A stretch of DNA of 64,000 nucleotides from Patescibacteria group bacterium (lineage in GTDB: Bacteria > Patescibacteriota > Minisyncoccia > Phycocordibacterales > UBA918). The DNA is taken from assembly GCA_018608435.1 (NCBI GenBank), contig JABAZV010000006.1, positions 31,692 through 95,691 on the forward strand, given 5' to 3'. A model generated the notes under the pieces. It worked only from the letters and a program-made list of their open reading frames with translations, had not been told where the DNA came from and did no database searches. Below are positions 1,194-24,238 of this stretch, one piece after another (position 1 is the first letter of the stretch; the number at the start of each line of letters is the position of its first letter). The translations under genes and the position numbers were made by a program.

Positions 1194-1709
1194 CTACTCT
1201 ATTGTAGAGGAATATGGAAGCATAATAGTGTCACTCACTAGCTTGGCGATGCTTTCGCGCGCGGAACGAGTGCGGTTGCTGCCAACATAATAGGGGAGTT
1301 CAGAAACTGTAATACGATAAAGGTCAGATTCTGTCGGTGCTGTATTTTCTATATCGGCAATAACATAAAGGGTGAAATCAGCTTGAGTGTAAGGAGCAAG
1401 CACATAATATGATCCTTCCACCGGTAAATCAGCCAATAGTAAGCCTGAAGTTTTGACAGAAATGTTGTCGGATGGAGTTTTGCTTTGAAGATTGTAGCCG
1501 ATTAAGTCGACATTGTCTTTGCTAGTAATACCAATCTTTGCACCAATCGGCAGCCGGGTTTCTTCAGCTCCAGTAGAGAAGTTTATGTTTACACTAAAGA
1601 GAGCGATCGTGTCGGTGGCGGCATAGCTTATACCTGAGCCAAGAGCATTAGCTGGTAAAACTCCAATACCTCCAACTAAAACAAATAAAGCGATTACGTA
1701 TGATTTCAT
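1194..1709 (-). CDS. Secreted hypothetical protein (signal peptide, beta-rich), co-directional with and 9 nt upstream of the pseudouridine synthase gene
   Basis: The complete ORF is 171 aa. The N-terminus MKSYVIALFVLVGGIGVLPANALG is signal-peptide-like. I recognise no known domain. Confidence 0.55.
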   Translation of the reverse strand: MKSYVIALFVLVGGIGVLPANALGSGISYAATDTIALFSVNINFSTGAEETRLPIGAKIGITSKDNVDLIGYNLQSKTPSDNISVKTSGLLLADLPVEGSYYVLAPYTQADFTLYVIADIENTAPTESDLYRITVSELPYYVGSNRTRSARESIAKLVSDTIMLPYSSTIE

Positions 1710-1851
1710 GTGTAGTATTTTACTATATATATGAAGTGTCGCAAATTTACAGAGTGCTACAATCGTGCAGTGTAAGTAAAATGACTATTTTATAACCTGA
1801 GAAAGATTTATCGGTGTTGACTTAACTTGTTAATTCTGGGGAAAGGTTGGT

Positions 1852-1896
1852 GTATCTGTGCGAGTGACAGCCTGCGGCTGTCACTCGCACAGATAC
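1852..1896. repeat. Perfect 21-bp inverted repeat with a 3-nt spacer (GTATCTGTGCGAGTGACAGCC-TGC-GGCTGTCACTCGCACAGATAC) in a divergent intergenic region
   Basis: I verified this base by base. No T-run follows on either strand, so it is not a canonical terminator. It lies between the divergent ORFs 1194..1709 (-) and 2050..4038 (+). Confidence 0.7.
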
Positions 1897-2049
1897 ATTT
1901 CACACATCCAGTTCTCCACACTATACACAGCTTGCGTTTTCGAAAAAAAGTAGTATAGTCTGAACAACACGTCAAACCCCATAAGTAGTTGTTGCCGTGG
2001 GATCATTCAATCTAGTTCTTACTTCAAGTCTGTACGATACTTAATACAG

Positions 2050-4038
2050 ATGTTTTACCTTATTCAGATCACTTTAATACCTTTATTTATGAACGCTTTT
2101 TATTCTCTTAAAACTAATGCCTCAGCGCGCGCGCTAGCATTTTTAACCGTACTTTCGTTGCTTGTAAGCAGCTTGCCGTTGGCTGTTTTTACAGCAAATG
2201 CAGCGAGTGATGCTGTTGGTACGCTTACAGCTTTTGTGCTCCCAAACCCTTCAGATGGTGCTGGTGAGTACGTAGATCTTCAGTTTGTTGGTACAGGCAC
2301 GCTTGAACTAGCTGGCTGGACTATTTTTGACGCCAACAGGTTGCTTAATGACAATCCTCTATATACTTTTACAGAAACAGACATTCTTACTAATGGTGAT
2401 GAGCTGCGTCTGTGTGGCAATATGGCACTAGTGACTAACTGCGATATTGTTTATCCTGGCGGGAATACCGTTTGGAACAATACAACCGACACGCTCACGC
2501 TTAAGGATGAAGCAGGAGTAACAGTCCTAGAGTTTGATTGGACAGATCCTTTTGTTGAAGGTCTTGAAAATGGAGATACACCTGTTGATTTTTCTGCTGA
2601 AGAAGAAGAAGAAGATGAAGACGAAGCTGATACAAGTACATCTACCGAGCCGACAGGTTCTATCACGGTTGATCCCACAGTGCTAGAAACTACTATTTCA
2701 ACGCAAGTAAACTTCGTTGTTTCAGCGGAGTATGAAAACCTCTCATCTACACAAATCGTAGTGTCTGATGATTCTACTACTGGTTTGTTCTTCGGAGGCA
2801 ACACTGCGGGTGAATGTAATTCAGCTACTGTTGTTGAAGATAATACTTTTATTATTACTAACAACAAAGGTATTTGCTACTCAAACAGTGTTGCTGGCGA
2901 TTACGAAATCACTGCACAGCTAGTTGGTGGAGCAAGTAGTACTCCGGTAGGTGAAGCGGTTGTTATTGAGGTTTCTGTTCTTGCAGGTCAAGATGAAACA
3001 GGAACTACAACTGACGAAGGCACAGGAACTACAACTGACGACGGCACCGGAACAACTACTGACAACGGTTCAGGCACTACAACAGACAACGGAACAGGCA
3101 CGACTACAGACGATGGTGCTGGAGGCGGAGACGATGATGAAACAGGTGCGGGATCAGGTGGAGGTGGTGGTAGTGCAGAAACAGCTGGTGAATGTGAAAT
3201 TGAAGCTCATAAATACGACAGTGAAGGAAATCCTCTTTCAGGCTGGATGCTTGGTCTTATGAAGGTTATTTACAACGATGAATTCACAAATACATACTCT
3301 CTAGCTGAACAAGAAACTGGTGCTGATGGTTACGTATGTCTTGAATGGGATGGTGAAACTCGTTCTCCATTAAGCGTGGAAGGTGAAATTACTGGTAATG
3401 ACTACAATTTTGACTACTACGTATATGAGACATTGCAAGACGGATGGACAAATTGGTCAATCGAAGCTGGAGCAGACTTCAACAATCTTGTTGTAGTACC
3501 AGACGAAGATGTTCGTAGCGATGGTTTTACAGCCAGCGTACAGATTGGTGAGACTAATGGTTTCCTTATTAAAGGCGCAGCTTTCCATGTTGATTTCTAC
3601 AACCTTCTTCTAAACGGCGTAGAAACAGGAACATCAACTGACGATGGAACTGGAACAACTACAGACGACGGTACTAGTACTACGACTGATGATGGTACAG
3701 ACACAACTGTAAACGAAGTACCGCGTGGCGGTGGAGGTTCACTAGCTTCACCAGCTAACAGGGGTGGAAGTAGTGGAGGCTCAAGCTCTTCTGATGATGA
3801 GCTTGAAGAAGCTGGTGCGGCACCGCTTGTGGTGGGAACTACAAACAATGACAATGGTTCTGGTGACGGAAATACTCCAGCAGCACAAGTGCTTGGTGAT
3901 CAGGTAAGTGTTGTGCCATTTGGTGGTGCTGATACTGGTGCTGGCGGGAGTGCTCCACAGGCAGCTTCATTATGGGCTTCTCTACTGCTTGCGGTTTTGG
4001 CAGCTGGACTACGTTTTACACGACGCTTTGTAGCTTAG
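2050..4038 (+). CDS. Secreted cell-surface protein with Thr/Asp-rich tandem repeats and a C-terminal hydrophobic segment plus Arg-rich tail; candidate substrate of the adjacent sortase
   Basis: The N-terminus carries a signal peptide. An acidic run EEEEEDEDE is followed by GTGTTTDDGT repeats. The C-terminus ...VVPFGGADTGAGGSAPQAASLWASLLLAVLAAGLRFTRRFVA is a TM plus RR tail, like a cell-wall sorting signal but without LPXTG. A sortase gene lies 26 nt downstream. Confidence 0.8.
   Translation: MFYLIQITLIPLFMNAFYSLKTNASARALAFLTVLSLLVSSLPLAVFTANAASDAVGTLTAFVLPNPSDGAGEYVDLQFVGTGTLELAGWTIFDANRLLNDNPLYTFTETDILTNGDELRLCGNMALVTNCDIVYPGGNTVWNNTTDTLTLKDEAGVTVLEFDWTDPFVEGLENGDTPVDFSAEEEEEDEDEADTSTSTEPTGSITVDPTVLETTISTQVNFVVSAEYENLSSTQIVVSDDSTTGLFFGGNTAGECNSATVVEDNTFIITNNKGICYSNSVAGDYEITAQLVGGASSTPVGEAVVIEVSVLAGQDETGTTTDEGTGTTTDDGTGTTTDNGSGTTTDNGTGTTTDDGAGGGDDDETGAGSGGGGGSAETAGECEIEAHKYDSEGNPLSGWMLGLMKVIYNDEFTNTYSLAEQETGADGYVCLEWDGETRSPLSVEGEITGNDYNFDYYVYETLQDGWTNWSIEAGADFNNLVVVPDEDVRSDGFTASVQIGETNGFLIKGAAFHVDFYNLLLNGVETGTSTDDGTGTTTDDGTSTTTDDGTDTTVNEVPRGGGGSLASPANRGGSSGGSSSSDDELEEAGAAPLVVGTTNNDNGSGDGNTPAAQVLGDQVSVVPFGGADTGAGGSAPQAASLWASLLLAVLAAGLRFTRRFVA
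3001..3120 (+). repeat. Five tandem 24-nt repeats encoding GTTTD(D/E/N)G(T/S/A) within ORF 2050..4038; a second three-unit array lies at 3628..3699
   Basis: I read the units directly: ggaactacaactgacgaaggcaca, ggaactacaactgacgacggcacc, ggaacaactactgacaacggttca, ggcactacaacagacaacggaaca, ggcacgactacagacgatggtgct. Confidence 0.7.
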
Positions 4039-4063
4039 GCTGTGTGATTAAGTAAATTGTATT

Positions 4064-4666
4064 TTGCTTATGAATATTAACAAAAATCACCTCGAAATTG
4101 GGGTGATTTTTGTTTTTATGGCCGTACTAGTATTTGTTCCTAAGGGTGATCTTACGTCAGTCGAAAGAACAGAAGTAGAGGCGTTAGAAAGTGATTTTAT
4201 AGTTCAGGTTGCACAAAACCAATCTCTGCCTAAAACTCTGAGAATTCCAAAACTTAACATAGAAACTTCGTTTGGCTCAACTTTGGGTTTAACAGACAGT
4301 GGGGAAGTAGCTGTGCCTGATAATTTCTCCAATGTCGGTTTGTATGAATATGGTCCTCGTCCAGGGGAGCTTGGTCCGGCGGTTGTGCTTGGTCATGTTG
4401 ATTCTTATGAGGGTCCAGCAGTTTTTTATTCAATTGGTCAACTTGACCTCGACGATAAGATAGAAATTGAAACTGAAGATGGCACAAAACTAACCTTTAT
4501 TGTAACTGATTCTGTAAAATATTTACAAGATGATTTTCCGACGGAGCTGGTTTATGGAGACCTCGATCATGCTGGTTTACGGCTCGTGACATGCTCTGGA
4601 ACGTACAATAGAGACAAGAATCGCTACACACATAATCGTGTGATTTACGCAAGATTAGAAGGTTGA
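4064..4666 (+). CDS. Sortase (class E/F-like cysteine transpeptidase)
   Basis: There is an N-terminal TM. LRIPKLNIE matches the L.IPk.i motif. VVLGHVD holds the catalytic His. LRLVTCSG is the TLxTC Cys motif. NRVIYARLEG holds the conserved Arg. The gene is adjacent to a surface protein with a sorting-signal-like C-terminus. Confidence 0.85.
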   Translation: MLMNINKNHLEIGVIFVFMAVLVFVPKGDLTSVERTEVEALESDFIVQVAQNQSLPKTLRIPKLNIETSFGSTLGLTDSGEVAVPDNFSNVGLYEYGPRPGELGPAVVLGHVDSYEGPAVFYSIGQLDLDDKIEIETEDGTKLTFIVTDSVKYLQDDFPTELVYGDLDHAGLRLVTCSGTYNRDKNRYTHNRVIYARLEG

Positions 4667-4800
4667 ATAGTGAAATATTACGCTCGATATTGATTATATC
4701 GTTAATAAAGGCCATATATTTTGCTATTGACAAAAAACACTTTTCGGTATACAAATATACACATACCAGAAGTTCTCCAAATTTGTCGCATGATTTTTGT

Positions 4801-4824
4801 CTTCACTGGGTGACCAGTGAAGGT
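4801..4824 (+). promoter_or_regulatory. Perfect 9-bp stem-loop (CTTCACTGG-GTGA-CCAGTGAAG) in the putative 5' leader of the GT2 gene
   Basis: I read this in the sequence. There is no T-run after it. It lies about 47 nt upstream of the ATG at 4871. Its function is unknown. Confidence 0.3.
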
Positions 4825-4870
4825 TTAACGTGTGCTCAGGTGAGAATGACGTAGAGCAATTTATAAAAGT

Positions 4871-5905
4871 ATGACAATCACAATTTTAATACCATGTCAC
4901 AATGAAGAGCTCGGCATCGCCGCAACTGTTCAGTCGTGTTTAAACCAAACACGCAAGCCAGATCAAATTCTGGTTGTAAATGATGGCAGTACTGATCGTA
5001 GTGGCGAAATTCTCAAAAGCTTTGGTGATCAAATTCAAGTTTTGCATTTGCCCAAAGCAACTGGAAACAAAAGTCACGCCCAAGAGCTTGGACTTAAATT
5101 TGTAACTACAGATGTGTTTATTGCAACAGACGGCGACACGCAATTGGATGAGCGATTTGTCGAATACGTTGAAGAGGATCTCGAAAACAATCCTGAACTC
5201 ACAGCACTTGGTGGTTACGTGCGTAGCCAGCGTCACAACTGGCTTACCGCCTGTCGTGCCTTTGAATACAGTGTAGGACAAAACCTACACAAGCTTGCAC
5301 AACATCATCTTGGTTTTCTGTTTGTGATCCCTGGAGCGGCTGGAGTTTTCAAAACTGATCACTTCCGTAAATACATTTCTTTTGAACATGATACTTTGAC
5401 TGAAGACCTCGACTTCACCTACCGTCTGCACTCACTTGATCTTAAAATTATGTATGACCGTCGTTTGGTTGTATTGACACAAGATCCTGCCACACTGCAC
5501 TCATACATCAACCAAATGCGTCGATGGTTTGGCGGCGGTTGGCAGACTCTGATGAAGCATCACCGATTGGCTTTTAAAAAACCAAAAATTGCGCTGGAGT
5601 TGTCGATTATGTATGCAGAAGGAATTGTGTTTTCAATTTTGGTATTTTTGTTACCATTCTTGAGTCTTGAATTCTACAAGAACTTTATCTTGTCGTACTT
5701 TGCATTAGCGATCGCATTTGCTATCTTTGCTGCTTGGAAAGAGCGACGAATTGAAATGTTGTTGGTTCCGATTCCTTACGTATTGTTAGTATTAATCAAC
5801 TCGTATATATTCTTGGAGCAATTTGTTAAGGAGGTGGTTTTGCGTCGCAAGAACCTTACTTGGTTCCATCCAGAACGATTTAATAATAGTGAGAAATTAA
5901 GTTAA
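4871..5905 (+). CDS. Processive family-2 glycosyltransferase (beta-polysaccharide synthase-like: DXD, TED, QxxRW) with a C-terminal TM region
   Basis: The GT-A N-terminus is ILIPCHNEE...VVNDGSTD. The DXD is IATDGDTQLD. The TED motif is LTEDLDF. The QxxRW motif is INQMRRW. Three or four C-terminal TM helices follow. These motifs are diagnostic of cellulose/chitin/PNAG/hyaluronan-type synthases. Confidence 0.8.
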   Translation: MTITILIPCHNEELGIAATVQSCLNQTRKPDQILVVNDGSTDRSGEILKSFGDQIQVLHLPKATGNKSHAQELGLKFVTTDVFIATDGDTQLDERFVEYVEEDLENNPELTALGGYVRSQRHNWLTACRAFEYSVGQNLHKLAQHHLGFLFVIPGAAGVFKTDHFRKYISFEHDTLTEDLDFTYRLHSLDLKIMYDRRLVVLTQDPATLHSYINQMRRWFGGGWQTLMKHHRLAFKKPKIALELSIMYAEGIVFSILVFLLPFLSLEFYKNFILSYFALAIAFAIFAAWKERRIEMLLVPIPYVLLVLINSYIFLEQFVKEVVLRRKNLTWFHPERFNNSEKLS

Positions 5906-5910
5906 TTAGT

Positions 5911-6339
5911 ATGTTTTTTCAACTCGCAGGCCTGTCTCTAATAGTGCATCTTTTGATCATTTCCATGGCAGCTATATTCAATTTTGTAAGAGGAAGAAAA
6001 ATTTCATCAGCTTTTGACACGAAGAAAAAAGAGCATGGTCCCTCGTCTAAATTTGTAAGCATGCTGGTGTCTGGGTCAATTCTGACATTTGTATTCGTTT
6101 ACATGTTCTCACTGATGACCCTTGCTATATCAACTGGAGTTAAGGTTGGTGCTGATGAGCCGCAGGTTATCTTCATGAAAGAGCTATTTGGCACAGTCCT
6201 TGGTTGGATGATTGCTACTTTAACTCACCCTGTAGGAGTACTTAGTTTGCTTGTATTGGTTAGCGTTGTTATCGAGCTAAGTACACTACGTTACCGCCGA
6301 CAGTACAGTCGAGCGATGAGTAGCTCGATGGGAAGCTAG
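5911..6339 (+). CDS. Small integral membrane protein (about 4 TM), co-transcribed with the GT2 gene; possible synthase accessory subunit
   Basis: The ORF is 142 aa and starts 5 nt after the GT2 stop. It has four hydrophobic segments. I recognise no domain. Its position is analogous to IcaD/PgaD, which is inference only. Confidence 0.55.
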   Translation: MFFQLAGLSLIVHLLIISMAAIFNFVRGRKISSAFDTKKKEHGPSSKFVSMLVSGSILTFVFVYMFSLMTLAISTGVKVGADEPQVIFMKELFGTVLGWMIATLTHPVGVLSLLVLVSVVIELSTLRYRRQYSRAMSSSMGS

Positions 6340-6408
6340 TATTAAAAATGAAGTCACTAGAATTTAGAAAATTATCAATCATTTCAGTCAGTCAATAATT
6401 ATCGTCTT

Positions 6409-9400
6409 ATGAAAACTCCATTCAATCAAACTCGTAGTAATGTTCTTGTCGCCTTAGTAATGCTAGGTGCAGCATTGACATTCTTTGCACCGCAGTCAGC
6501 TTTGGCGCAAATTCCAGATGTCGTAATAAACGAGTCGGGGTTTGAGAATGAAGTGATTGCTGGTGGATTGAGTTTACCTACTGCGATGGCCTTCACTCCA
6601 GACGGGCGTATTTTTGTGACTGAAAAGAGTGGAGTTGTTCAGGTGATCAAGAATGGTGTTGTTCTAGCAGCTCCTCTTATTTCGCTTACAGATGTGAACA
6701 CTTTCGGCGACCGTGGTTTGCTTGGAATTGAGACTGATCCAAACTTTGCTTCAAACGGTTACGTGTATTTGTTATATACATATGAAAACTCACCAGGGAT
6801 AAACATCTCTGGTGCTAAGACTGCGCGAATCGTGCGAATCACTGTTACTGGCGACACTGCTAGTGAGTCTAGCAAAGTTGTTTTGGTTGGAGCTGTTGGC
6901 GGAAATGTTACTTCACCTTCGTGTGAGGATTTTGCTGTAACTGCAGACTGTATTGCGTCTGACTCAAACAGCCACAGTGCTGGCGGTTTGCGTTTTGGTC
7001 CTGACGGCAAGCTTTACGCCACAACTGGCGACGGAGCAGACTTTGCAGCGGTAGACAGCCGCGCACTGCGTGCCCAAGACATTGATTCGTTGGCTGGAAA
7101 AGTGCTTCGTATTAATACTGACGGAACTGCTCCAGCAGACAACCCGTTTTATGATGGTGATCCTGACTCAAACCGATCTAAAGTTTATGCTTTTGGTTTT
7201 CGTAACCAATTCCGCTTCAATTTTAATACCGAAACAGGCAAGCTTTATGGAGGTGATGTAGGATGGAGCTCATGGGAAGAAATCAACGAAGTAGTAGCTG
7301 GCGCCAACTACGGCTGGCCTTGTCGTGAGGGAGATTTTGCACAGGCTGAATATGCTTGTGATCCGTCAACTGTAGCTTCGGATCCTGTTTATGCTTACGC
7401 GCATGACGCAACTGGCGCAGGTTCAATCACAGCTGGCTCATTTTTCGAGAACAATGTATACCCGGCTGAGTATTCTACTAGCATGTTTATTGGTGACTAC
7501 GCGCAGCAATGGATGAAGCGACTAGTACTCGACACAAACGGAAATGTGGTTGAAGTAGTTGATTTTGTGCCCAATATGATTTGGCCGGTTGAGATTACAA
7601 CTGGCGCTGATGGAAATGTTTATTACATCGATATCGCACGAGGATCTGTAAACCGTATTACTCACACAGAAGGAAACCGTAGTCCGGTTGTAAACATTAC
7701 TGCTACGCCAACTTCTGGTCTATCGCCACTTCAAGTAGAGTTTTCAAGTGCTGGAACTCAGGATCTTGATGGTGATACACTTTCTTATTTCTGGACATTT
7801 GGAGACGGTGCGACGGCAGCCACTACAAGTCCTGTTCATACTTATACAACAAATGGACTTTACACAGCTTCGCTCCAAGTAACTGATTCTAATGGCGCTA
7901 CGGTATCAAAAAGTATTGATATTACGGTTGGTAATCAATCTCCAGCGGCTGAGATTACTAGTCCCGTTAGTGGTTCGTTCTATGAAGCTGGTCAAACATT
8001 GTCTGTTTATGGTCTTGGTACCGATCCTGAAGACGGAGCTATTCCAGCTGAAAACATTTCTTGGGAAGTAATACTTCATCATAATGTTCACACTCATACG
8101 TTATCGACGGCTGCAGGAGTGGATACAATTGAATTTCAAGCTGATGGTCATGACGATCCTGATGTTTACATTCGAGTCGTAATGCGAGTAACAGACAGCA
8201 ACGGTTTGGTTGGTGAGGACAGTATCAACATGTATCTCGACAACGGTTCAGGTATTGCTGGAAACTTGATTTCAAATCCTTCACTTGAAGAAGCTGATCC
8301 AGCTTTTGCTATTCAACCGCTTGATTGGATTCCGGGATGGTATGGAAACATGAACCCTGTATTTGAATATCCAGTTAACGGACTTTCTGGCGAAAAGGCT
8401 GCGCGAGTAACAGTTACTGATTATGTCTCAGGAGCAGCGAGATGGTATTTCTCTCCAGCCTTTGTGCAAGTGGGTACTGACTACAGATTTAGTAATGTTT
8501 ACATTGCAGATACAACTACCACTTTTACTGCTCAGTACGGTCGTTCAGATGGAACATACTTTTACGAAGTACTCAAAGTGCTTCCCGCTGTGTCTGATCC
8601 TACTAGTGCTGAGGTGACTTTCACTGTGCCAGAAGGAGTTCAGACAATGACTATTTTTCACGATCTATTTGCTAACGGTACTTTGACTGTGGATGAGTAT
8701 TCGTTGGTAGAAGTTTCTGGCGATACAAACCCACCGACTGGTTTCTTTACTAACATCGTGCCTGGTGATGTTGTTTCAGGAACCGTTTTGCTTGACGTGA
8801 CTGCAGCTGATGCTGAAGGTGATGTAACAATGGTGCATCTTTACGTGGACGGAGCAAAAGTTGAAGGAATAGAAGATACTACCGCACCATTTCAGCTTTT
8901 GTGGGACACGACTGCATTTGCAGACGGTGGGCACACAATCCAAGTTCATACACACGACGAAGTAGATAATGCTGGTTTGTCTGACCCAATCGCTATTACT
9001 ATTGATAATAGTTCTACTTCGACAAATCCAAATCTAGTATTTAATGGTGACTTTGAGATTGTTGGAGATGATGGTTTACCAGCCGGTTGGATACAGGGCG
9101 GTTGGGGTACAAACGAACGCGTTTACACTTACCCAAGCAATGGTCGCGATGGAGGAAGAGCAGCGGCTGTGTCTATTAATAAGTATGATCTGAGTGACGA
9201 CGGTGACGCTAAGTGGGTATTTTCAGATATTCCGGTTATTGTTGGTACAGAATACACATACAGAAATTATTACTATTCTGACACGATCTCAGACATAATT
9301 GGTCGCTACACTTACGCTGACGGCAGTATTTCTTACTTTGGTTTGATTAAGGAAATTGCACCTGTGGCTGATTGGACGCCGCTTGAAGCTACCTTTACAC

Positions 9401-12400
9401 CACCAATTGATGCTGTGAGCATAACGCTTTTCCAATTGGTAAGTTCTGTTGGTACAGTGGCTGTTGACGATGTCTCAATAGTTGTAAGTGGCACCAGCGG
9501 GCCAAGCGAAGCTAATGCACCAGCTGTCAATATCACAACTCCAGCGGCTGGAACGACTATAAGTGGAACTGTAACGGTCGTTGCAAACGCAACTGACGAT
9601 ACGGCGATAGTAGGAGTTTACTTTGCTGCAAATGGTATTCCAATCGGAAGCGAAGACTTTGCTGCTCCATATAATTACGTTTGGGACACAACAGCTGTAC
9701 CAAATGGAGAGTATATCCTGAAAGCAACTGCTCATGATCCATACGGAAACAACAATAAAGACGAAATTACAATAACTGTTGATAATAGTGGTGTAACGCC
9801 TCCGCCTTCTGGTGGCAATCTTATTGCCAACGCAGATTTTGCAACGGTAGTAGCAGGTGAACCAGCAGGCTGGAATAAAGGAGGATGGGGAACAAACAGT
9901 CGTGTTTTGACCTTTGTAGACAATGGCGGAAACGACAAGTATATTCGAACTGCAATTTCTGATTACGTATCAGGTGACGCGAAATGGTACTTCAATGATG
10001 TGTCTGTAACAGCTAACGAAACTTACGGTTACACGAGTACTTATCGATCCGATGTGCCAAGCGCTCTGACAGCTCGCTACACCAAAGCAGACGGCAGTAT
10101 TCAGTACGAATACCTCGGAGGCGAGCCTGCTTCTGCAGCATGGAATGATACTCAGGCTTACGACATCACAACTCCAGCGGACACGGTTTCATTGACTGTT
10201 TTCCATTCAATCAGCACAGCCGGTACGCTCGATGTACAAAGTGCAATATTGACTGGTGTGGCTGGTGAGCAAACAATCGAAGATCTGCAGCAGATGGTCA
10301 GTGATCTATTCCTTCAGATAAATGGTTTGTTGGCAAATGCTGGTAAAGAAGTAGATTCTTGTGATCTGATGACACTTGATCTAGCTAAAAACGCAGAAGA
10401 ACTTGATGCCCAGATTAATGATTTACTTGCAGTGCTTTCTGTACTGCAGGGAGGTGGAGTACCAGTTATTGGAACTTGTACAGTAACTGACATTCCAGTC
10501 GGTGCTAACCTGATCGCAAACGGCGATCTAGAAGTTGGTTCAGCAAACAATCCAACAGCTTGGGCTCAAGGAGGCTGGGGTACTAATGCTCGCGCCTTCA
10601 CTTACCCAGTAGCAGGCGAGACTGGTGACGCTGCTCGAGTAGAAATCACAAGCTACACCTCAGGTGACGCAAAATGGTTCTTCAATGACGTAACAGTGGT
10701 GTCTGGAACTGATTACACTTTTAGCGAAACTTACAAAGCAAACGTAGCTTCTGGACTCACAGCTCGCTACACTACAGCTGACGGTACAGTTTCTTACGAG
10801 TATCTTGCAACATTGCCAATTGCGGCAACGTGGCAAACTCACGTTGAAACAATCTCAGTACCAGCAGGCGTTACTGCTCTCACTATCTTCCACACTATTA
10901 CATCTGTAGGTGTGCTAGATATCGACAACTTCTCACTAACCGGAGCAGATGGTGGTCCTGGAGGTGGCGGAGGAGGGGTTACTCCACCAACTATTAGTTA
11001 CACAGGAGTAAGTGATGGTGATACTGTAACGGGACGACTTGTTCTAAATGTATCATTAGTAGACGGTAGCGCAGCTCCTTACCAGTCAGTTCAGCTGGAA
11101 ACAAATGGCACACCTGTAGCCAGAGACACAACGGCACCATATGTGTTGGCTTGGGACACAACTCGTTTTGCAGATGGTGACTACGAACTTGTAGTTGTAG
11201 TAAACGACGAAGTCGAAGCAAAAACTCAATCTGCGGCAATCAACATCACAGTTGATAATGTTGCTGACCCAGTAGATCCACCTCCGGTAGATCCTCCAAC
11301 AGGGAGCGGAATAATCAACGGATCAATGGAAGCGGCTGACCCAACTGACGCAACGCGTCCAAACGGTTGGAGCAAAAGTGCTTTCGGAGAATACGATGTA
11401 ACATTCACTTATCCAATTGCTGGAATAAGTGGAAACGGAGCGCGAGTTGAGCTTGCTAACTACATATCAAGTGACGCAAAGTGGGTATTCGAACCAGTCT
11501 CCGTAACAGCTGGAGCACTATACACACTGACTCATAGCTATCGTTCTGATGTAGAGACTACTATTAGTTTGGTATATCAGCGAGCCGACGATTCTTTCTA
11601 CTACATTGGACGAGTAGACTTAGCACCTAGCGCAACTTGGAAAACAGTCAAAGATTCATTCGTTATTCCAGATGATGCTGTAGCAGTATCTGTATTTCAA
11701 AGCCTGACTGCAGACGGTTTCCTTGAAGTAGACGAATTCATGCTAGAGCTTGGAACACCAGATGCTTTCAGTCAAGGAATGATTTCTCTTAGCTTCGATG
11801 ACGGTTGGCTAACTCACTATACTGAAGCTTTGCCACTGCTTGAAAAACACGACACTGACGCAACTTTCTACATAGTTAGTGGCTACACAACAGAAGCAAA
11901 TGGATCAGAACTAGTCGCCAACAACCTTATTTCAACAAACAACGGCAACGGTACACCAACAGGATGGTTCCAAGGTGGTTGGGGAGATAGTACTCAAGCA
12001 CTGGACTATAATATTACTGGCGGCGTGAATGGTGATGGTTCAGTGCGTACTGAAATAACAAATTATGTTTCTGGCGACGCTAAATGGTACTTTGATGACG
12101 TGCCAGTGACAGCAGGAGAATCATATGCTTTAACGCAAACTTACCGTTCTACGACTGACACTCAAATCAACGTTCGTTACACAATGTCTGATGATTCGTT
12201 CGTATACGACTTCATTGCTGGCGCTCCAAATACTGGAAACAGTTGGGAAGTGAATTCAAGTATAGTTGTTGCTCCAGTTGATGTGGTATCAATGACAATC
12301 TTTCATGTAGTTACTAGCGACGGAGTGCTAGAAATCGACAATGCATCAATTGTGTTAGTCGAAGACTTCATCTCTACCGACGAGGTACAGCGTTTGGCTG

Positions 12401-12891
12401 CGGCTGGTCACGAGATTGGTTCACATACTATTACCCACAGTTACCTCACAACATTAAGTGAGGCAGGGCAGGTAGCAGAACTTGAAAATTCAAAATCTAC
12501 TCTTGAGAACACGATTGTTCCAGGTGTTGCTGTGACTAGCATCGCGTATCCTTACGGAGACTACGATGGCTCAGTATTAGACAAAACAGCTGCGGCTGGC
12601 TATGACGCGGCGCGCGGAGTAGACCGAGGCTATAACACCAAAGCGACCGAACGTTACGCGCTTAAAGTGCAGCAAGTCGATCGTACAACAACAATTGCTG
12701 ATATTAACGAATGGATGACACAGGCAGAAACCGACGGTACTTGGTTAATCCTTATGTTCCACCAAATCGACGACATCGCAGCCAACGATCTCGGTATCAC
12801 AGCAGAATTCCTAGATGAAATCCTGACGACAGTAAACAACAGCGGAATCGCAGTGACAACAATAGGTGACGCAATCGGACTTTTGAACTAA
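6409..12891 (+). CDS. Giant secreted multidomain protein (2160 aa): PQQ-type sugar dehydrogenase-like beta-propeller, PKD/Ig-like domains, six CBM_4_9-like modules, and a C-terminal CE4 (NodB) polysaccharide deacetylase with one CBM module inserted
   Basis: It has a signal peptide. The SGDH-like propeller shows AMAFTPDGRIFVTEKSGVVQVI...LLGIETDPNFASNGYVYLLYTY. The PKD domain shows LSYFWTFGDGATAATTSPVHTYTTNGLYTASLQVTDSNG. Six modules repeat about every 600 bp, each with GW..GGWGTN...SGDAKW(Y/F)F.D.. ...W...PA..T.FH...S.G.L.(I/V)D. The CE4 motifs are SFDDGW (motif 1), GHEIGSHTITH (motif 2), IAYPYG (motif 3) and LILMFH (motif 5). Confidence 0.9.
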   Translation: MKTPFNQTRSNVLVALVMLGAALTFFAPQSALAQIPDVVINESGFENEVIAGGLSLPTAMAFTPDGRIFVTEKSGVVQVIKNGVVLAAPLISLTDVNTFGDRGLLGIETDPNFASNGYVYLLYTYENSPGINISGAKTARIVRITVTGDTASESSKVVLVGAVGGNVTSPSCEDFAVTADCIASDSNSHSAGGLRFGPDGKLYATTGDGADFAAVDSRALRAQDIDSLAGKVLRINTDGTAPADNPFYDGDPDSNRSKVYAFGFRNQFRFNFNTETGKLYGGDVGWSSWEEINEVVAGANYGWPCREGDFAQAEYACDPSTVASDPVYAYAHDATGAGSITAGSFFENNVYPAEYSTSMFIGDYAQQWMKRLVLDTNGNVVEVVDFVPNMIWPVEITTGADGNVYYIDIARGSVNRITHTEGNRSPVVNITATPTSGLSPLQVEFSSAGTQDLDGDTLSYFWTFGDGATAATTSPVHTYTTNGLYTASLQVTDSNGATVSKSIDITVGNQSPAAEITSPVSGSFYEAGQTLSVYGLGTDPEDGAIPAENISWEVILHHNVHTHTLSTAAGVDTIEFQADGHDDPDVYIRVVMRVTDSNGLVGEDSINMYLDNGSGIAGNLISNPSLEEADPAFAIQPLDWIPGWYGNMNPVFEYPVNGLSGEKAARVTVTDYVSGAARWYFSPAFVQVGTDYRFSNVYIADTTTTFTAQYGRSDGTYFYEVLKVLPAVSDPTSAEVTFTVPEGVQTMTIFHDLFANGTLTVDEYSLVEVSGDTNPPTGFFTNIVPGDVVSGTVLLDVTAADAEGDVTMVHLYVDGAKVEGIEDTTAPFQLLWDTTAFADGGHTIQVHTHDEVDNAGLSDPIAITIDNSSTSTNPNLVFNGDFEIVGDDGLPAGWIQGGWGTNERVYTYPSNGRDGGRAAAVSINKYDLSDDGDAKWVFSDIPVIVGTEYTYRNYYYSDTISDIIGRYTYADGSISYFGLIKEIAPVADWTPLEATFTPPIDAVSITLFQLVSSVGTVAVDDVSIVVSGTSGPSEANAPAVNITTPAAGTTISGTVTVVANATDDTAIVGVYFAANGIPIGSEDFAAPYNYVWDTTAVPNGEYILKATAHDPYGNNNKDEITITVDNSGVTPPPSGGNLIANADFATVVAGEPAGWNKGGWGTNSRVLTFVDNGGNDKYIRTAISDYVSGDAKWYFNDVSVTANETYGYTSTYRSDVPSALTARYTKADGSIQYEYLGGEPASAAWNDTQAYDITTPADTVSLTVFHSISTAGTLDVQSAILTGVAGEQTIEDLQQMVSDLFLQINGLLANAGKEVDSCDLMTLDLAKNAEELDAQINDLLAVLSVLQGGGVPVIGTCTVTDIPVGANLIANGDLEVGSANNPTAWAQGGWGTNARAFTYPVAGETGDAARVEITSYTSGDAKWFFNDVTVVSGTDYTFSETYKANVASGLTARYTTADGTVSYEYLATLPIAATWQTHVETISVPAGVTALTIFHTITSVGVLDIDNFSLTGADGGPGGGGGGVTPPTISYTGVSDGDTVTGRLVLNVSLVDGSAAPYQSVQLETNGTPVARDTTAPYVLAWDTTRFADGDYELVVVVNDEVEAKTQSAAINITVDNVADPVDPPPVDPPTGSGIINGSMEAADPTDATRPNGWSKSAFGEYDVTFTYPIAGISGNGARVELANYISSDAKWVFEPVSVTAGALYTLTHSYRSDVETTISLVYQRADDSFYYIGRVDLAPSATWKTVKDSFVIPDDAVAVSVFQSLTADGFLEVDEFMLELGTPDAFSQGMISLSFDDGWLTHYTEALPLLEKHDTDATFYIVSGYTTEANGSELVANNLISTNNGNGTPTGWFQGGWGDSTQALDYNITGGVNGDGSVRTEITNYVSGDAKWYFDDVPVTAGESYALTQTYRSTTDTQINVRYTMSDDSFVYDFIAGAPNTGNSWEVNSSIVVAPVDVVSMTIFHVVTSDGVLEIDNASIVLVEDFISTDEVQRLAAAGHEIGSHTITHSYLTTLSEAGQVAELENSKSTLENTIVPGVAVTSIAYPYGDYDGSVLDKTAAAGYDAARGVDRGYNTKATERYALKVQQVDRTTTIADINEWMTQAETDGTWLILMFHQIDDIAANDLGITAEFLDEILTTVNNSGIAVTTIGDAIGLLN

Positions 12892-21127: not shown

Positions 21128-22207
21128 ATGTTCGCAAAAGCAACTAAAGTTGGCTTTGCGCAGCAGGTGGTCGCGACACTTGTTGCAAGCGCAGTACTTA
21201 TGTGGTCATTTGGAATGTACCACACTGCGCAAGCAGCTAACCTCACTTTAATTAGTGACACCCTCGGCACTTCGGAGCCGGCGGTGACCTCAACACACTC
21301 AATTGCCTTCACTATCCCAACCGGCTCTGCGCTGGCGGATGGTGACACGGTAACTATTACATTCCCCGTAGGCTTTACAGGCGTTGCAGCAGTAGCCGAT
21401 GCTAATACCGACATTACTGTCGGAGGAACGCTAGATGTTGATGGTTCGGCAACCGTCGCAGGCGCTGGCCAAAGTATTACATTTAATACTGTGGCTGCAG
21501 CGGCGGGGCAAGAAATAATAGTCGCGATCGATGATTTGATTATTACAAATCCAGCAGTAGTTGGTTCGTATGAAATCTCACTTGATACTGGAACAGGTGG
21601 AGATAATGGTAACACTCGTGTTGCCATTATCGACACTGTACTAGTTACTGCAGCAGTTCTTACAACTTTTGATTTCACAATCATTGGAACTGCAACTTCT
21701 ACAGCAGTTAACGGAACATCAACTACTGGCTCAACTACTCCAACTGCCGTACCGTTTGGTACCGTGTCAGCTGGAGAAGTTAACACTCTCGCTCAACGTC
21801 TAACTGTATCTACAAACGCACGAAACGGTTTTGTGGTTACGGTACAAAGTGACGGTGAACTAGAGTCTTCAAACGGAGCGATCATTGACAGCTTCACCAA
21901 CGGTACTGACATTGCAGTTGCAGGTACCGCTTGGGCATCACCTACAAACCTCGTAGCAGATGAAGCGACTTGGGGTCACTGGGGAATCACTTATGATGAT
22001 GACGCAACAGTAGATCTTGCAGCCAATGAATTTATTGCTGCTTCTACTACACCGCGAGAAGTCTTCAGTCACACAGCTGCAGCTGATGGAGTAACACCAA
22101 ACATTGGTAGTACAACTATTGGCTACCAGCTAGAGATTACTCCACTACAGGAAGCGGCCGATGATTACAGCACTATTCTGACATTCATTGCAACACCTAC
22201 TTTCTAG
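21128..22207 (+). CDS. Secreted surface protein (signal peptide; N-terminal about 60-aa domain paralogous to that of ORF 24360..26258)
   Basis: Cleavage looks to follow AQA. The N-domain is SDTLGTSEP...THSIAFTI...GDTVTITFPVGF. The 24360 ORF has SDTISDSGP...HTLNFIL...GSTFEITPPSGF. The opposite-strand ORF 21070..21786 is a shadow. Confidence 0.7.
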   Translation: MFAKATKVGFAQQVVATLVASAVLMWSFGMYHTAQAANLTLISDTLGTSEPAVTSTHSIAFTIPTGSALADGDTVTITFPVGFTGVAAVADANTDITVGGTLDVDGSATVAGAGQSITFNTVAAAAGQEIIVAIDDLIITNPAVVGSYEISLDTGTGGDNGNTRVAIIDTVLVTAAVLTTFDFTIIGTATSTAVNGTSTTGSTTPTAVPFGTVSAGEVNTLAQRLTVSTNARNGFVVTVQSDGELESSNGAIIDSFTNGTDIAVAGTAWASPTNLVADEATWGHWGITYDDDATVDLAANEFIAASTTPREVFSHTAAADGVTPNIGSTTIGYQLEITPLQEAADDYSTILTFIATPTF

Positions 22208-22230
22208 TAAATGCAAATCTGAAATGGACA

Positions 22231-22259
22231 CAAAACCCTCTTTGAGGGTTTTTGTTTTG
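22231..22259 (+). terminator. Rho-independent terminator (AAACCCTC-TTTG-AGGGTTT plus T-run)
   Basis: caaaaccctctttgagggtttttgttttg lies 25 nt after the stop at 22207. Confidence 0.75.
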
Positions 22260-22668
22260 TCTGTTGCTCATGCTAGACAAGCTTTCGACAATATTATTTT
22301 TTCACATTTTTGATATTTATCATATTTTATTCTGAATTTTACGCTTGCCAATTTAATTGTCATAACAAGTTTATTTTCATAAATAATATTTAAAAGTGGC
22401 TTAGCTTTGTTAAAACTTTGGGTCAGATCTTGGTTAAGAAAGGTCTTTTAGATTTAAAAATATTTACAGTGTTTGTAGTTTCAGTTTAAAATATGGTTAA
22501 AGGTGAACCCAAATATGACATCGACTTTAGTTGTAAGCATGAGGATTGGTACACATTTTTTCGTACACATTTATAAATAATGTGTTCGTTTTGTGAATAG
22601 TAAAGACATACACAGTTGCAGGGTGATATGATGGTATTAATTATCAAATTTATAGTCAAAGCTGACAC

Positions 22669-23763
22669 ATGACATCAATCCCTCATTTTTTATCGACCTA
22701 TTTTATATCATGTGCGAAATTGGTGGTTGTCGCCTTTTTTATTGTAGTTTTCTTTATTTTCCCCATACTTGCGACGGCGCAAGAAGAAGGGGTCGGTATT
22801 TCTCCTGCGACGATCGAAGAAACTATAGATCCTGGAGTGACAAAAGAATACGCGGTGACTATAGAGAACCTGAATAATAGTGAACAGAAATATTTTTTGT
22901 CCACTCGAAATATAAAAGGAGTAGAAGCTGGTGGTGTTCCTGTATTCGCTACAGATAATTTAGAGAAGACTGGTTATGAGTTAGCAGATTGGATAGATTT
23001 GTCTGTGACAGAAGTTGTCGTTCCTTCTCGCGGTAAAGTTCAGGTTCCTTTTGTACTAAGTGTGCCAGAAGCCGCTTCTCCTGGAAGTCACTTTGGAGGA
23101 GTTTTTATTTCGGTGGACCCTCCTGATATTGTGGGTAGTGGTGCAGCTGTGGGATATCAAGTAGCAAACATTATAAGCATAAGAGTTTCGGGTGACGCTA
23201 TCGAACAGGCTGGTGTACGTGAATTTTCAACTGTTAACTTTTTCCATAATTCACAAGATGTTGATTTTCAAGTAAGAATTGAGAACACAGGAAATGTTTT
23301 AGTGCGCCCCACTGGACCGCTTGAGATTTACAACATGTTAGGAAATAAAGTTGGTAACATCGTTTTTAACGAAAGTCAAAGCGGCGTATTTCCAGGAACG
23401 GTAGAGACTTTCTCAAATATAAATTGGACAGGGGATTCGCTTGGGTTCGGTCGTTATGAAGCGGTAGTTAGCCCGGTTTATGGTGATTTTGGAGCCATAA
23501 AGACCATGACAAGTACTGTTACTTTTTGGATTCTACCGATGAGCATTATCGGTCCTGCTCTTGGTGTGCTGGCTGTGCTGGTTTTACTTACATACATATT
23601 TGTGCGCATCTACATCAAGAGATCTCTTGCTCACATAACGCAGGGCAGGAGAATTGTTCGTAAGCGTAATCAGCAAGGGTCGTCAGCCTGGTTACTTGTT
23701 ACAGTAATGGTATTGGCGGTCACAGCTCTATTTCTCATTGTGTTGTTGGCTCTGTTTGCGTAA
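22669..23763 (+). CDS. Cell-surface protein with an N-terminal signal/TM, an Ig-like extracellular region and a C-terminal TM anchor (DUF916/DUF3324-like or COG1470-like architecture)
   Basis: GISPATIEETIDPGVTKEYAVTIENLNNSEQKYFLS resembles the DUF916 N-terminus pattern. There are two C-terminal TM helices. The assignment rests on pattern and architecture, not on a confirmed HMM hit. Confidence 0.6.
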   Translation: MTSIPHFLSTYFISCAKLVVVAFFIVVFFIFPILATAQEEGVGISPATIEETIDPGVTKEYAVTIENLNNSEQKYFLSTRNIKGVEAGGVPVFATDNLEKTGYELADWIDLSVTEVVVPSRGKVQVPFVLSVPEAASPGSHFGGVFISVDPPDIVGSGAAVGYQVANIISIRVSGDAIEQAGVREFSTVNFFHNSQDVDFQVRIENTGNVLVRPTGPLEIYNMLGNKVGNIVFNESQSGVFPGTVETFSNINWTGDSLGFGRYEAVVSPVYGDFGAIKTMTSTVTFWILPMSIIGPALGVLAVLVLLTYIFVRIYIKRSLAHITQGRRIVRKRNQQGSSAWLLVTVMVLAVTALFLIVLLALFA

Positions 23764-23791
23764 TTTACAATTGTGTGACATATTAAAACAT

Positions 23792-24238
23792 ATGGCATCT
23801 GACGCAATAAACAACAATGTGATACCGAAATTGAAGCAATTTTCGATGTATCATAAAGCATTGCGAATTGCTATGGCTGTCGCATCTGTCGCACTTGTGT
23901 TTGAAAGTGGTTTGGTTGATGATTCTACTGCTCGCATGTCGCAGCAAACTCATCAGTACTTGGCTAATGCAGTTGGCATGACAACTTCTGTTAGTCCAAC
24001 AGAGCTCAATCAGTACACCGCCGCCCTAACGGCAAAAGAAAAAGCTCTTGCTGATCGAGAAGCTGCCTTGGAAGAACGTGAACTATCGATCGGTTTGTCG
24101 TCTGGGGTTAGTACTCCAGGAAATCAACAGGCAACGTATATTTTGGCTAGCGTTCTGTTTATATTGTTGGCACTAATATTGCTAAACTACATTCTTGATT
24201 ACATGCGTTTGCGTCGAGAATCAGTCGTGCAAGTTTAA
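23792..24238 (+). CDS. Small bitopic membrane protein with a central coiled-coil segment (start trimmed to the ATG at 23792)
   Basis: The listed ORF starts at 23738, inside the upstream gene. The downstream ATG gives 148 aa with N- and C-terminal TM helices and a coiled coil (EKALADREAALEERE). Confidence 0.45.
   Translation: MASDAINNNVIPKLKQFSMYHKALRIAMAVASVALVFESGLVDDSTARMSQQTHQYLANAVGMTTSVSPTELNQYTAALTAKEKALADREAALEERELSIGLSSGVSTPGNQQATYILASVLFILLALILLNYILDYMRLRRESVVQV

Follow-up and report, generated by a model that had tools for sequence, protein, structure and literature searches.

A divergent class F sortase and an adjacent secreted protein with a predicted glycine-rich, non-LPXTG sorting signal in a Patescibacteria group bacterium

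The sortase locus

The window analyzed here (the whole stretch of 64 kb from contig JABAZV010000006.1 of a Patescibacteria group bacterium) carries a gene for a secreted surface protein and, directly downstream on the same strand, a gene for a sortase. An earlier reading of the letters alone, here called the original prediction, had proposed that the secreted protein is the substrate of this sortase and that its recognition motif, which is not LPXTG, is novel. The list of open reading frames (ORFs) confirmed the coordinates and the order of the two genes:

2050..4038, + strand: substrate gene, encoding a secreted surface protein of 662 aa (ORF list) with a signal peptide, a lamin-tail-domain (LTD)-like domain, Ig-like beta domains, Thr/Asp/Gly-rich linkers and, at its C-terminus, a signal for sorting
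4064..4666, + strand: class-F-type sortase gene (Pfam, NCBIfam, AlphaFold2), encoding 200 aa from the TTG at 4064 or 198 aa from the ATG at 4070, the latter being the NCBI gene call

Depending on the start codon of the sortase gene, the gap between the stop codon of the substrate gene and the sortase start is 25-31 nt, and no terminator-like site was found between the two genes. The genes are therefore probably co-transcribed. A promoter and terminator scan of positions 1600..5000 gave nothing beyond the expectation from shuffled sequences. Proteins identical to the substrate (P0121) and to the sortase are present at NCBI, both without a name.

A predicted glycine-rich sorting signal at the C-terminus of the putative substrate

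The substrate ends with ...VLGDQVSVVPFGGADTGAGGSAPQAASLWASLLLAVLAAGLRFTRRFVA, and the region of its signal is spanned by VSVVPFGGADTGAGGSAP and DQVSVVPFGGADTGAGGSAPQ. The motif PFGGADTGAGG is followed by seven residues, the hydrophobic segment LWASLLLAVLAAGL, the tail RFTRRFVA and the stop codon:

3889..3948, + strand: extended sorting motif VLGDQVSVV-PFGGADTGAGG, residues 614-633 (match to NF058571 and position frequencies)
3916..3948, + strand: motif core P623-F-G-G-A-D-T629-G630-A-G-G633 (conservation among the neighbour proteins described below)
3970..4011, + strand: hydrophobic membrane-spanning segment LWASLLLAVLAAGL, 14 residues (641-654; hydropathy scan, AlphaFold2 helix at 639-661)
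4012..4038, + strand: basic cytoplasmic tail RFTRRFVA and stop codon (sequence)

The original prediction had thus correctly described a substrate that lacks LPXTG and LAXTG but has the tripartite architecture of motif, hydrophobic segment and basic tail. Sorting signals of the LPXTG, LAXTG or NPXTG type were absent from the substrate and from all frames of the window, in which the sole matches to the corresponding regular expressions lay inside a transmembrane (TM) segment or in non-coding frames. A search for further sortases and LPXTG proteins, which had been proposed for the genome together with the prediction and here covered the window, revealed no second sortase and no genuine LPXTG-type signal; there is one sortase gene and one protein with such a C-terminus.

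The NCBIfam model NF058571 (GVDTG_CTERM, 'GVDTG sorting domain-containing protein') matches residues 622-659 of the substrate. The full-length protein scored 25.6 bits (E 1.1e-5), which is below the curated cutoff of 29, whereas the isolated last 55 aa reached 32.3 bits (E 9e-8). This gap presumably results from the composition correction for a low-complexity protein. None of the other sorting-signal models, including those of the LPXTG family, GlyGly-CTERM and PEP-CTERM, matched the tail at E ≤ 0.01. Because NF058571 matches the tail, we read the motif as G-A-D-T-G within PFGGADTGAGG. The signal is non-canonical, as had been proposed, yet it is already modelled in NCBIfam and thus known at the level of databases. 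In the literature, no paper describing the GVDTG signal was found; the search term 'GVDTG' brought up unrelated items and a search for DUF4397 together with sortase nothing.

In a collection of 5.8 billion proteins, P0122 and P0123 were the only full-length relatives of the substrate. They share its domains and its C-terminal signal, while the linkers diverge. Their tails contain ...VLGEQVSAVPFGGVNAGAGS... and ...VLGDQVSAVPLGAANTGAGG..., in both cases with a TM segment and RR thereafter. The pattern common to the three proteins is VLG-[D/E]-QVS-x-VP-[F/L]-G-x-x-[D/N]-[T/A]-GAG, then the TM segment and then RR, with R658 and R659 of the substrate invariant in both relatives. An RR(R) cluster is also present in the neighbour proteins.

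The enzyme is a predicted class F sortase with Asn in place of the catalytic Arg

The product of the downstream gene matches the Pfam family Sortase (PF04203) with 63.5 bits (cutoff 26.6) over residues 59-198, covering profile positions 1-124 of 125. It contains the sequences LRIPKLNI, GHVDS with His111 and TCSG with Cys177, so that the L.IPk.i motif, the His and the Cys named in the original prediction were all recovered. The features of the enzyme, compared with 105 homologues, are:

4082..4141, + strand: N-terminal membrane anchor, residues ~7-26, with the hydrophobic run EIGVIFVFMAVLVFVP (AlphaFold2 helix 7-23)
4394..4396, + strand: predicted catalytic His111 in GHVDS, invariant in 105/105 homologues
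4592..4594, + strand: predicted catalytic Cys177 in TCSG, invariant in 105/105 homologues
4634..4636, + strand: Asn191 in YTHNRVIYA, where other classes have their catalytic Arg, Asn in 103/105 homologues

Asp113, Gly179 and Tyr188 are invariant as well. The Arg of NRVIYARLEG, which had been taken as catalytic, did not stand up to this comparison: neither R192 nor R197 is conserved, with Leu, Val or Ile predominating at position 192 and variable residues at 197. In a profile alignment to sortase E of Thermobifida fusca, 'YSH-N-LIVYAEL' was placed over 'NSH-R-LIVHAEL'; this alignment is weak (E 0.04) but shows a clear local pattern, and on its basis Asn191 was assigned to the position of the catalytic Arg. 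Arg187, which aligns with the 'DRY' of 4d70, was considered for the same role and rejected, as it is present in 41/52 homologues from Patescibacteria and only 3/53 from Actinomycetota and as the class E alignment puts Asn191 there. In class F sortases, Arg is replaced by Asn (PMC6998099). Asn191 at this position therefore supports the assignment to class F and does not speak against homology to sortases.

The NCBIfam model for class F sortases, NF033748, scored 149.8 bits with the window sortase over profile positions 6-154 of 155 and thus stayed below its curated cutoff of 166, whereas the models for class E and class D gave only 17.7 and 16.7 bits, respectively. The proposed resemblance to class E/F was hence borne out for class F and not for class E. 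Scores of 168-188 bits were obtained for the sortases of seven other loci (L002, L016, L025, L032, L037, L056 and L068), each of which has a signal-bearing upstream gene, and for P0047 and P0049. P0004, which shares 53% identity with the window sortase, scored 159.7 bits. Since NF033748 is by far the best model although its cutoff is not reached, and since relatives score 168-188 bits, we consider the window sortase to be a divergent representative of the family. TIGR03784 came second among the models, with 26-32 bits, for several class F sortases.

The AlphaFold2 model of the sortase had a mean predicted local distance difference test score (pLDDT) of 85.9 and showed a helix (residues 7-23) that a linker of low confidence joins to a beta-barrel. 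Foldseek matched it to sortases from classes C, E, D and A (probability 1.00, TM-scores of ~0.55-0.65, ~20% identity), and there was no close relative among the solved structures. Judged by its sequence, the enzyme belongs to class F as a divergent member and has a predicted His111/Cys177/Asn191 active site.

The gene pair is conserved in Patescibacteria and Actinomycetota

For the analysis of conservation, 25 sortase homologues were aligned and then used to fetch 80 loci (1.24 Mb) from species-representative genomes. The loci were picked by the sortase alone; ~27 come from Patescibacteria, and most of the others belong to Actinomycetota. The 66 loci with ≥ 1.2 kb of upstream DNA were informative. 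They were searched for genes with the motif near their stop codon, with a first pass that demanded a hydrophobic tail and a basic residue and a second one with a relaxed hydrophobicity filter. In the first pass, a motif gene on the same strand ended just upstream of the sortase match in 49/66 loci, with a median of 234 nt from its stop codon to the sortase match (53 first-pass genes). With the relaxed filter this number rose to 59/66, several tails from Patescibacteria being short and weakly hydrophobic; these genes carry the pattern P-x-G-x-x-x-[T/A/S]-G-x-G within 60 aa of the stop codon. Within the 1.24 Mb, 64/86 occurrences of the pattern sit just upstream of a sortase, and most of the others are second copies or spurious frames of high GC content. 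NF058571 matches 44/54 of the neighbour tails. Because of the match of NF058571 to the C-terminus of the substrate and the recurrence of the signal beside homologous sortases in 59/66 loci, we conclude that the feature is not a product of chance; both results also support the proposed pairing of sortase and adjacent substrate.

The residues at the positions of the 54 tails, with the Pro of the core as position 0, are:

Position -5: Gln 26/50
Position 0: Pro 54/54, outside the selection pattern
Position 2: Gly 54/54
Position 3: Ala 20, Gly 19, Ser 7
Position 4: Val 19, Pro 18, Ala 11
Position 6: Thr 41, Ala 13
Position 7: Gly 54/54
Position 9: Gly 54/54
Position 10: Gly 39, Ser 12

The consensus core is P-x-G-x-[V/P/A]-x-[T/A]-G-x-G-[G/S], with mostly Gly or Ala at position 3. 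Position 4 is often Pro, which gives an LPXTG-like core [A/H/Y/S]-P-x-T-G. The first pair of basic residues typically stands 29-34 residues after the Gly of the T-G dipeptide, a geometry as in classical sorting signals. In tails from Patescibacteria, a VLG-x-Q-V block that lies 5-9 residues before the Pro is conserved in addition. Two stretches had been put forward as candidate motifs, VPFGG and the Ala-rich stretch before the TM segment. In VPFGG only P623 and G625 are conserved, and the Ala-rich spacer SAPQAAS is not conserved among the 54 tails; both were rejected as the motif.

The passenger domains in front of the tails are unrelated to each other. They include Flg_new_2, DUF642/SdrD_B/LTD and SpaA_4, in Patescibacteria LTD, SpaA and SdrD_B, and in Actinomycetota DUF4397 and Ice_binding. 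The tail therefore appears to be a portable module tied to the enzyme. In Actinomycetota, enzymes with Q173 and 'YLSN' pair with x-P-x-T-G-x-G-G-A signals and enzymes with W114 and G119 with [A/G]-V-x-[T/A]-G-D-G-S-S signals. The sequence features, the family membership of signal and enzyme and the association of the genes as neighbours in two phyla are direct observations.

Several loci deviate from the common arrangement. In a subset (L001, L005, L007, L009, L010, L012 and L014) the signal is followed by a short, weakly hydrophobic stretch of ~10-12 residues, e.g., ...GTSRGLEFFHVVPVALLRRKA, and not by a full TM helix. In two Actinomadura loci (L039, 9813.., and L077, 9744..) the gene directly upstream of the sortase stops right after the motif (PAGAAATGFGEVLGRR*), and an intact copy with TM segment and tail lies ~5 kb further upstream; the short gene may have arisen as a truncated duplicate or through a frameshift. 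Locus L008 (PWWA01000121.1) is labelled 'Candidatus Woesearchaeota archaeon' and encodes a sortase 56% identical to that of the window and an upstream tail of the Patescibacteria type, LGEQVSVVPVGGAATGAGG. An error in binning or labelling is a more probable reason for this than an archaeal sortase.

Two loci from Saccharibacteria (L015, 3..1055, and L024, 1..1041) contain a protein with canonical LAKTG or LPATG, TM segment and basic tail ~9 kb from a class F/GVDTG-type pair, and both signal types can thus coexist in one genome. Because of this coexistence, LPXTG proteins elsewhere in a genome, which as substrates of this sortase were to count against the original prediction, are a weak argument and would not speak against a dedicated pair.

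The passenger of the substrate

In the substrate as a whole, Thr, Gly and Asp are the most frequent residues. The part in front of the sorting signal contains the following features:

2050..2202, + strand: predicted Sec signal peptide, residues 1-51, hydrophobic and ending with A-N-A (49-51) at the predicted cleavage site (read from the sequence)
2239..2544, + strand: LTD-like beta domain, residues 64-165 (weak match to Pfam PF00932)
2998..3113, + strand: Thr/Asp/Gly-rich tandem repeat no. 1, 24 nt, 8-aa unit TGTTTDDG, 4.8 copies (Tandem Repeats Finder), inside the linker of residues 314-383
3199..3600, + strand: conserved all-beta passenger domain, residues 384-517 (CEIEAHKYDSEGNPLSGW...), kept in P0122, P0123 and one protein of locus L005
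3629..3707, + strand: Thr/Asp-rich tandem repeat no. 2, 24 nt, 3.3 copies, TGTTTDDG-like units, linker 2 (Tandem Repeats Finder)

Met14 at position 2089 is an alternative start, and residues A26, R27, A30, T33, L35, L38, P43 and A49 of the N-terminus are kept in P0122 and P0123. The match to PF00932 reached 27.7 bits (E 3.8e-6) and not the gathering score of 34.3. PF00932 is also contained in the precomputed Pfam annotation of P0121 and P0122, and the substrate of locus L003 shows an equally weak match. In residues 314-383, Thr, Asp, Gly and Ser account for 80% of the sequence and the pLDDT is < 50. The domain of residues 384-517 had no Pfam match and its AlphaFold2 model is of low confidence. 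The mean pLDDT of the whole substrate, modelled from an alignment of three sequences, was 44.7, and a comparison of the substrate with PDB sequences gave no match.

Other genes and features of the window

Directly after the sortase gene, the region 4871..12891 encodes a PgaC/IcaA-like glycosyltransferase of family GT2 (135.6 bits with TIGR03937, whose cutoff is not reached), a membrane protein of 142 aa and a secreted protein of 2160 aa. The latter contains glucose/sorbosone dehydrogenase, PKD and Big_7 domains and a C-terminal polysaccharide deacetylase domain. The three proteins look like a synthase/deacetylase set of the poly-N-acetylglucosamine (PNAG) type. Locus L004 has the glycosyltransferase, the membrane protein and the giant protein, and locus L005 the glycosyltransferase and the membrane protein.

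A trio of genes at 21128..24238 encodes a protein of 359 aa with a weak BslA match, a WxLIP_PGBD-like protein with a C-terminal TM segment and a protein of ~166 aa with a highly conserved C-terminal helix, ST[FY][IV]LS.ILFILL.L.VLNY.LD[FY].R.R. In seven loci from Patescibacteria (L003, L004, L006, L009, L012, L018 and L020) the three genes lie 5-8 kb downstream of the sortase, in synteny with its region; the trio resembles the WxL/Csc cell-surface clusters of Firmicutes. Further downstream, an Hsp20 gene is flanked by the genes for a protein with dockerin (24360..26258) and one with cohesin (26992..28542), which could be a cohesin-dockerin surface pair. The ORF at 28737..45536 encodes a giant protein of 5599 aa for which Pfam gave just two small matches, Ig_Rha78A_N and DUF2341, and which is probably surface-associated.

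In the divergent intergenic region between the ORF at 1194..1709 (- strand) and the substrate gene, a near-perfect hairpin with a 24-bp stem (GGTGTATCTGTGCGAGTGACAGCC / GGCTGTCACTCGCACAGATACATT) is located at 1849..1899. Its RNA fold has -50.7 kcal/mol, with z = -8.85 compared to shuffled sequences, and there is no T-run. A pseudouridine synthase encoded beside the sortase region shows 66-74% identity to proteins of metagenome-assembled genomes of Paceibacterota, Kaiserbacteria and Parcubacteria, from which we take the genome to be Paceibacteria-like.

Proposed mechanism and alternative explanations

We propose that the two genes probably form a dedicated enzyme-substrate cassette. The 662-aa protein would be exported by Sec via its N-terminal signal peptide and would then be held in the membrane by the C-terminal hydrophobic segment and RFTRRFVA. 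In this way the Gly-rich signal P623-F-G-G-A-D-T-G-A-G-G633 would be presented to the membrane-anchored sortase encoded 25 nt downstream. Cys177 of the putative His111/Cys177/Asn191 active site would cut within the signal, and the bond most likely to be cut is Thr629-Gly630. We predict this bond because Thr/Ala-Gly is the conserved centre of the motif and because many variants contain the LPXTG-like sequence [A/H/Y/S]-P-x-T-G. The passenger, with its LTD-like and Ig-like domains on Thr/Asp-rich stalks, would be moved to the cell wall and displayed covalently at the surface. The export route, the cleavage with its exact scissile bond and the acceptor are what we infer, with membrane retention, cleavage and transfer modelled on the LPXTG pathway and its LPXT|G cut.

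Several points weigh against this proposal. Both window proteins are below the curated full-length cutoffs of their models (149.8 vs. 166 and 25.6 vs. 29 bits), and cleavage, scissile bond and acceptor are predictions for this protein as for GVDTG-type proteins in general. The family is devoid of the catalytic Arg of proven sortases, so that its activity and chemistry could differ. In Actinoplanes missouriensis, deletion of the full set of four class F sortases caused no phenotype (PMC13251363), and the sole characterized enzyme called class F, that of P. acnes, was reported to use LPXTG (PMC8225981). The view is that of 64 kb of the genome, elsewhere in which sortases or substrates are possible. 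The co-variation of sortase subclade and signal variant in Actinomycetota fits a co-diversification of the two, in counts that ignore phylogeny.

Processing by the sortase might also serve a purpose other than housekeeping anchoring to the wall, such as assembly of a fibre or pilus, attachment to a non-peptidoglycan acceptor (a surface glycopolymer or an S-layer) or release, and the cut might be at another bond, e.g., within G-x-G-G. The presence of one enzyme per substrate, as for pilus or other dedicated sortases, would agree with such a role, as would the SpaA, SdrD_B or prealbumin-like domains of substrate relatives, which are typical of pilins and adhesins. The Asn in place of the catalytic Arg would agree with it as well, and the conserved signal is longer than a pentapeptide on both sides, owing to P-x-G upstream and G-x-G-G downstream. 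Here and in L004/L005, the sortase is followed by a PgaC-like glycosyltransferase and a giant protein with a deacetylase domain, but this adjacency was found in only 2/80 loci. For a pilus, neither a pilin-type Lys motif nor a second pilin gene was identified, and the passengers DUF4397 and Ice_binding of Actinomycetota are not pilin-like. The T-G dipeptide and the geometry of the tail fit ordinary anchoring. We regard such a role as rather unlikely but as a serious possibility.

That the C-terminus is a permanent tail anchor, with a sortase that serves LPXTG-type proteins elsewhere and stands beside the substrate gene incidentally, appears very unlikely to us. A plain anchor would not be expected to keep P-x-G...[T/A]-G-x-G at a fixed distance from the TM segment across two phyla and unrelated passengers, the motif gene lies directly upstream of the sortase in 59/66 loci, and the window is devoid of an LPXTG-type signal near the sortase. 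These observations stand against the facts that most of the genome lies outside our view, that the full-length score of the substrate with NF058571 is under the cutoff, that canonical LPATG and LAKTG proteins occur in some loci of Patescibacteria and that the enzyme studied under the name class F was reported to cut LPXTG (PMC8225981). A third possibility is that the Gly-rich tail is the target of another enzyme, i.e., a rhombosortase, as for GlyGly-CTERM proteins, or an enzyme of the exosortase or archaeosortase type. Its G-x-G-G sequence followed by a TM segment and an Arg cluster is superficially similar to a GlyGly-CTERM signal. However, only NF058571 matches the tail, with no GlyGly-CTERM or PEP-CTERM model at E ≤ 0.01, the window ORFs scanned contain no rhomboid or exosortase-like domain, and the tight synteny is with the sortase, which makes this explanation hardly credible.

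Taking the dedicated cassette as a basis, the additional conserved residues on both sides (P-x-G upstream, G-x-G-G downstream) and the exchange of Arg for Asn suggest, as a speculation, a recognition unlike that of class A. We put forward as a tentative and rather doubtful idea that class F (His-Cys-Asn) sortases and the P-x-G-x-x-x-T-G-x-G-G tail form a distinct sorting system and not a variant of LPXTG, with an extended Gly-rich recognition element and possibly another scissile bond, mechanism or acceptor. The occurrence of such a cassette in both Patescibacteria and Actinomycetota would raise the possibility of an exchange between epibiont and host. If the idea were correct, the window would provide an example from Patescibacteria for a class of sortases whose substrates are still called unknown in the literature.

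Significance

Sorting domain and enzyme are both already curated in NCBIfam, and the pair of the window is a divergent, unnamed member. Since the sorting domain was already in NCBIfam, the value of this analysis does not lie in a discovery but in confirming it, in extending it to a divergent member and above all in a testable substrate hypothesis for class F sortases. These sortases occur widely in Actinomycetota and, according to the loci studied here, in Patescibacteria, and the pairing provides each of them with a candidate for its substrate and an 11-residue candidate for its recognition element. Patescibacteria live attached to other cells, and the pair of the window points to a stalked surface protein that is probably displayed covalently. 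If the enzyme indeed acts on a signal that is rich in Gly and not LPXTG, and does so with Asn instead of Arg, it could broaden the set of tools for sortase-mediated ligation.

Comparison with known systems

The class A sortase SrtA of Staphylococcus aureus and its LPXTG substrates share with the window pair the tripartite signal with Thr-Gly, hydrophobic segment and basic tail at similar spacing, and the enzymes have in common a membrane anchor, the sortase fold and the His/Cys pair. In contrast to LPXTG, the signal of the window is without Leu-Pro and comprises at least 11 conserved positions dominated by Gly and Pro. Its enzyme family has Asn for the catalytic Arg, and the window enzyme appears to be dedicated to one adjacent substrate and not to be a housekeeping sortase.

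Specialized sortases encoded beside their substrates are known from SrtB and IsdC with the signal NPQTN (class B) and from the TIGR03784 sortase with a single target (class GN, 'marine'). The window pair resembles these dedicated cassettes in that a special sortase is located beside its substrate with a variant signal, but motif and enzyme family are different. The class B SrtB and class GN TIGR03784 systems presumably retain the catalytic Arg.

Class E sortases with LAXTG substrates (Streptomyces SrtE1/E2, T. fusca SrtE) occur in Actinomycetota, which also hold class F pairs, and are among the closest solved folds at ~20% identity, with SH-R-LIVHAEL in strand beta-8 vs. YSH-N-LIVYAEL. They keep the catalytic Arg and recognize LAXTG (PMC8225981), whereas the window enzyme has Asn and reaches 17.7 bits on the class E model. 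The 'class F' sortase of P. acnes (Cutibacterium acnes) shares the class label with the window enzyme (PMC13251363, PMC8225981) and differs from it in that it was reported to recognize LPXTG and to be a housekeeping enzyme (PMC8225981). In recent papers up to 2026, the function of class F sortases is still called unknown (PMC13251363, PMC6998099).

The closest counterparts of the window pair are the pairs of NF058571 substrate and NF033748 sortase in Actinomycetota and Patescibacteria. Differences concern the passenger, which in the window is an LTD/Ig-like stalked protein and not DUF4397 or Ice_binding, the VLG-x-Q-V block that members from Patescibacteria have in addition, and the divergence of the window proteins, which at full length remain below both curated cutoffs. 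Common to all are the architecture of the tail and its core, with GADTG in PFGGADTGAGG in the window and P-x-G-[G/A]-[V/P/A]-x-[T/A]-G-x-G-G as consensus, the order of substrate and then sortase gene on the same strand and the His, Cys and Asn signature of the enzyme.

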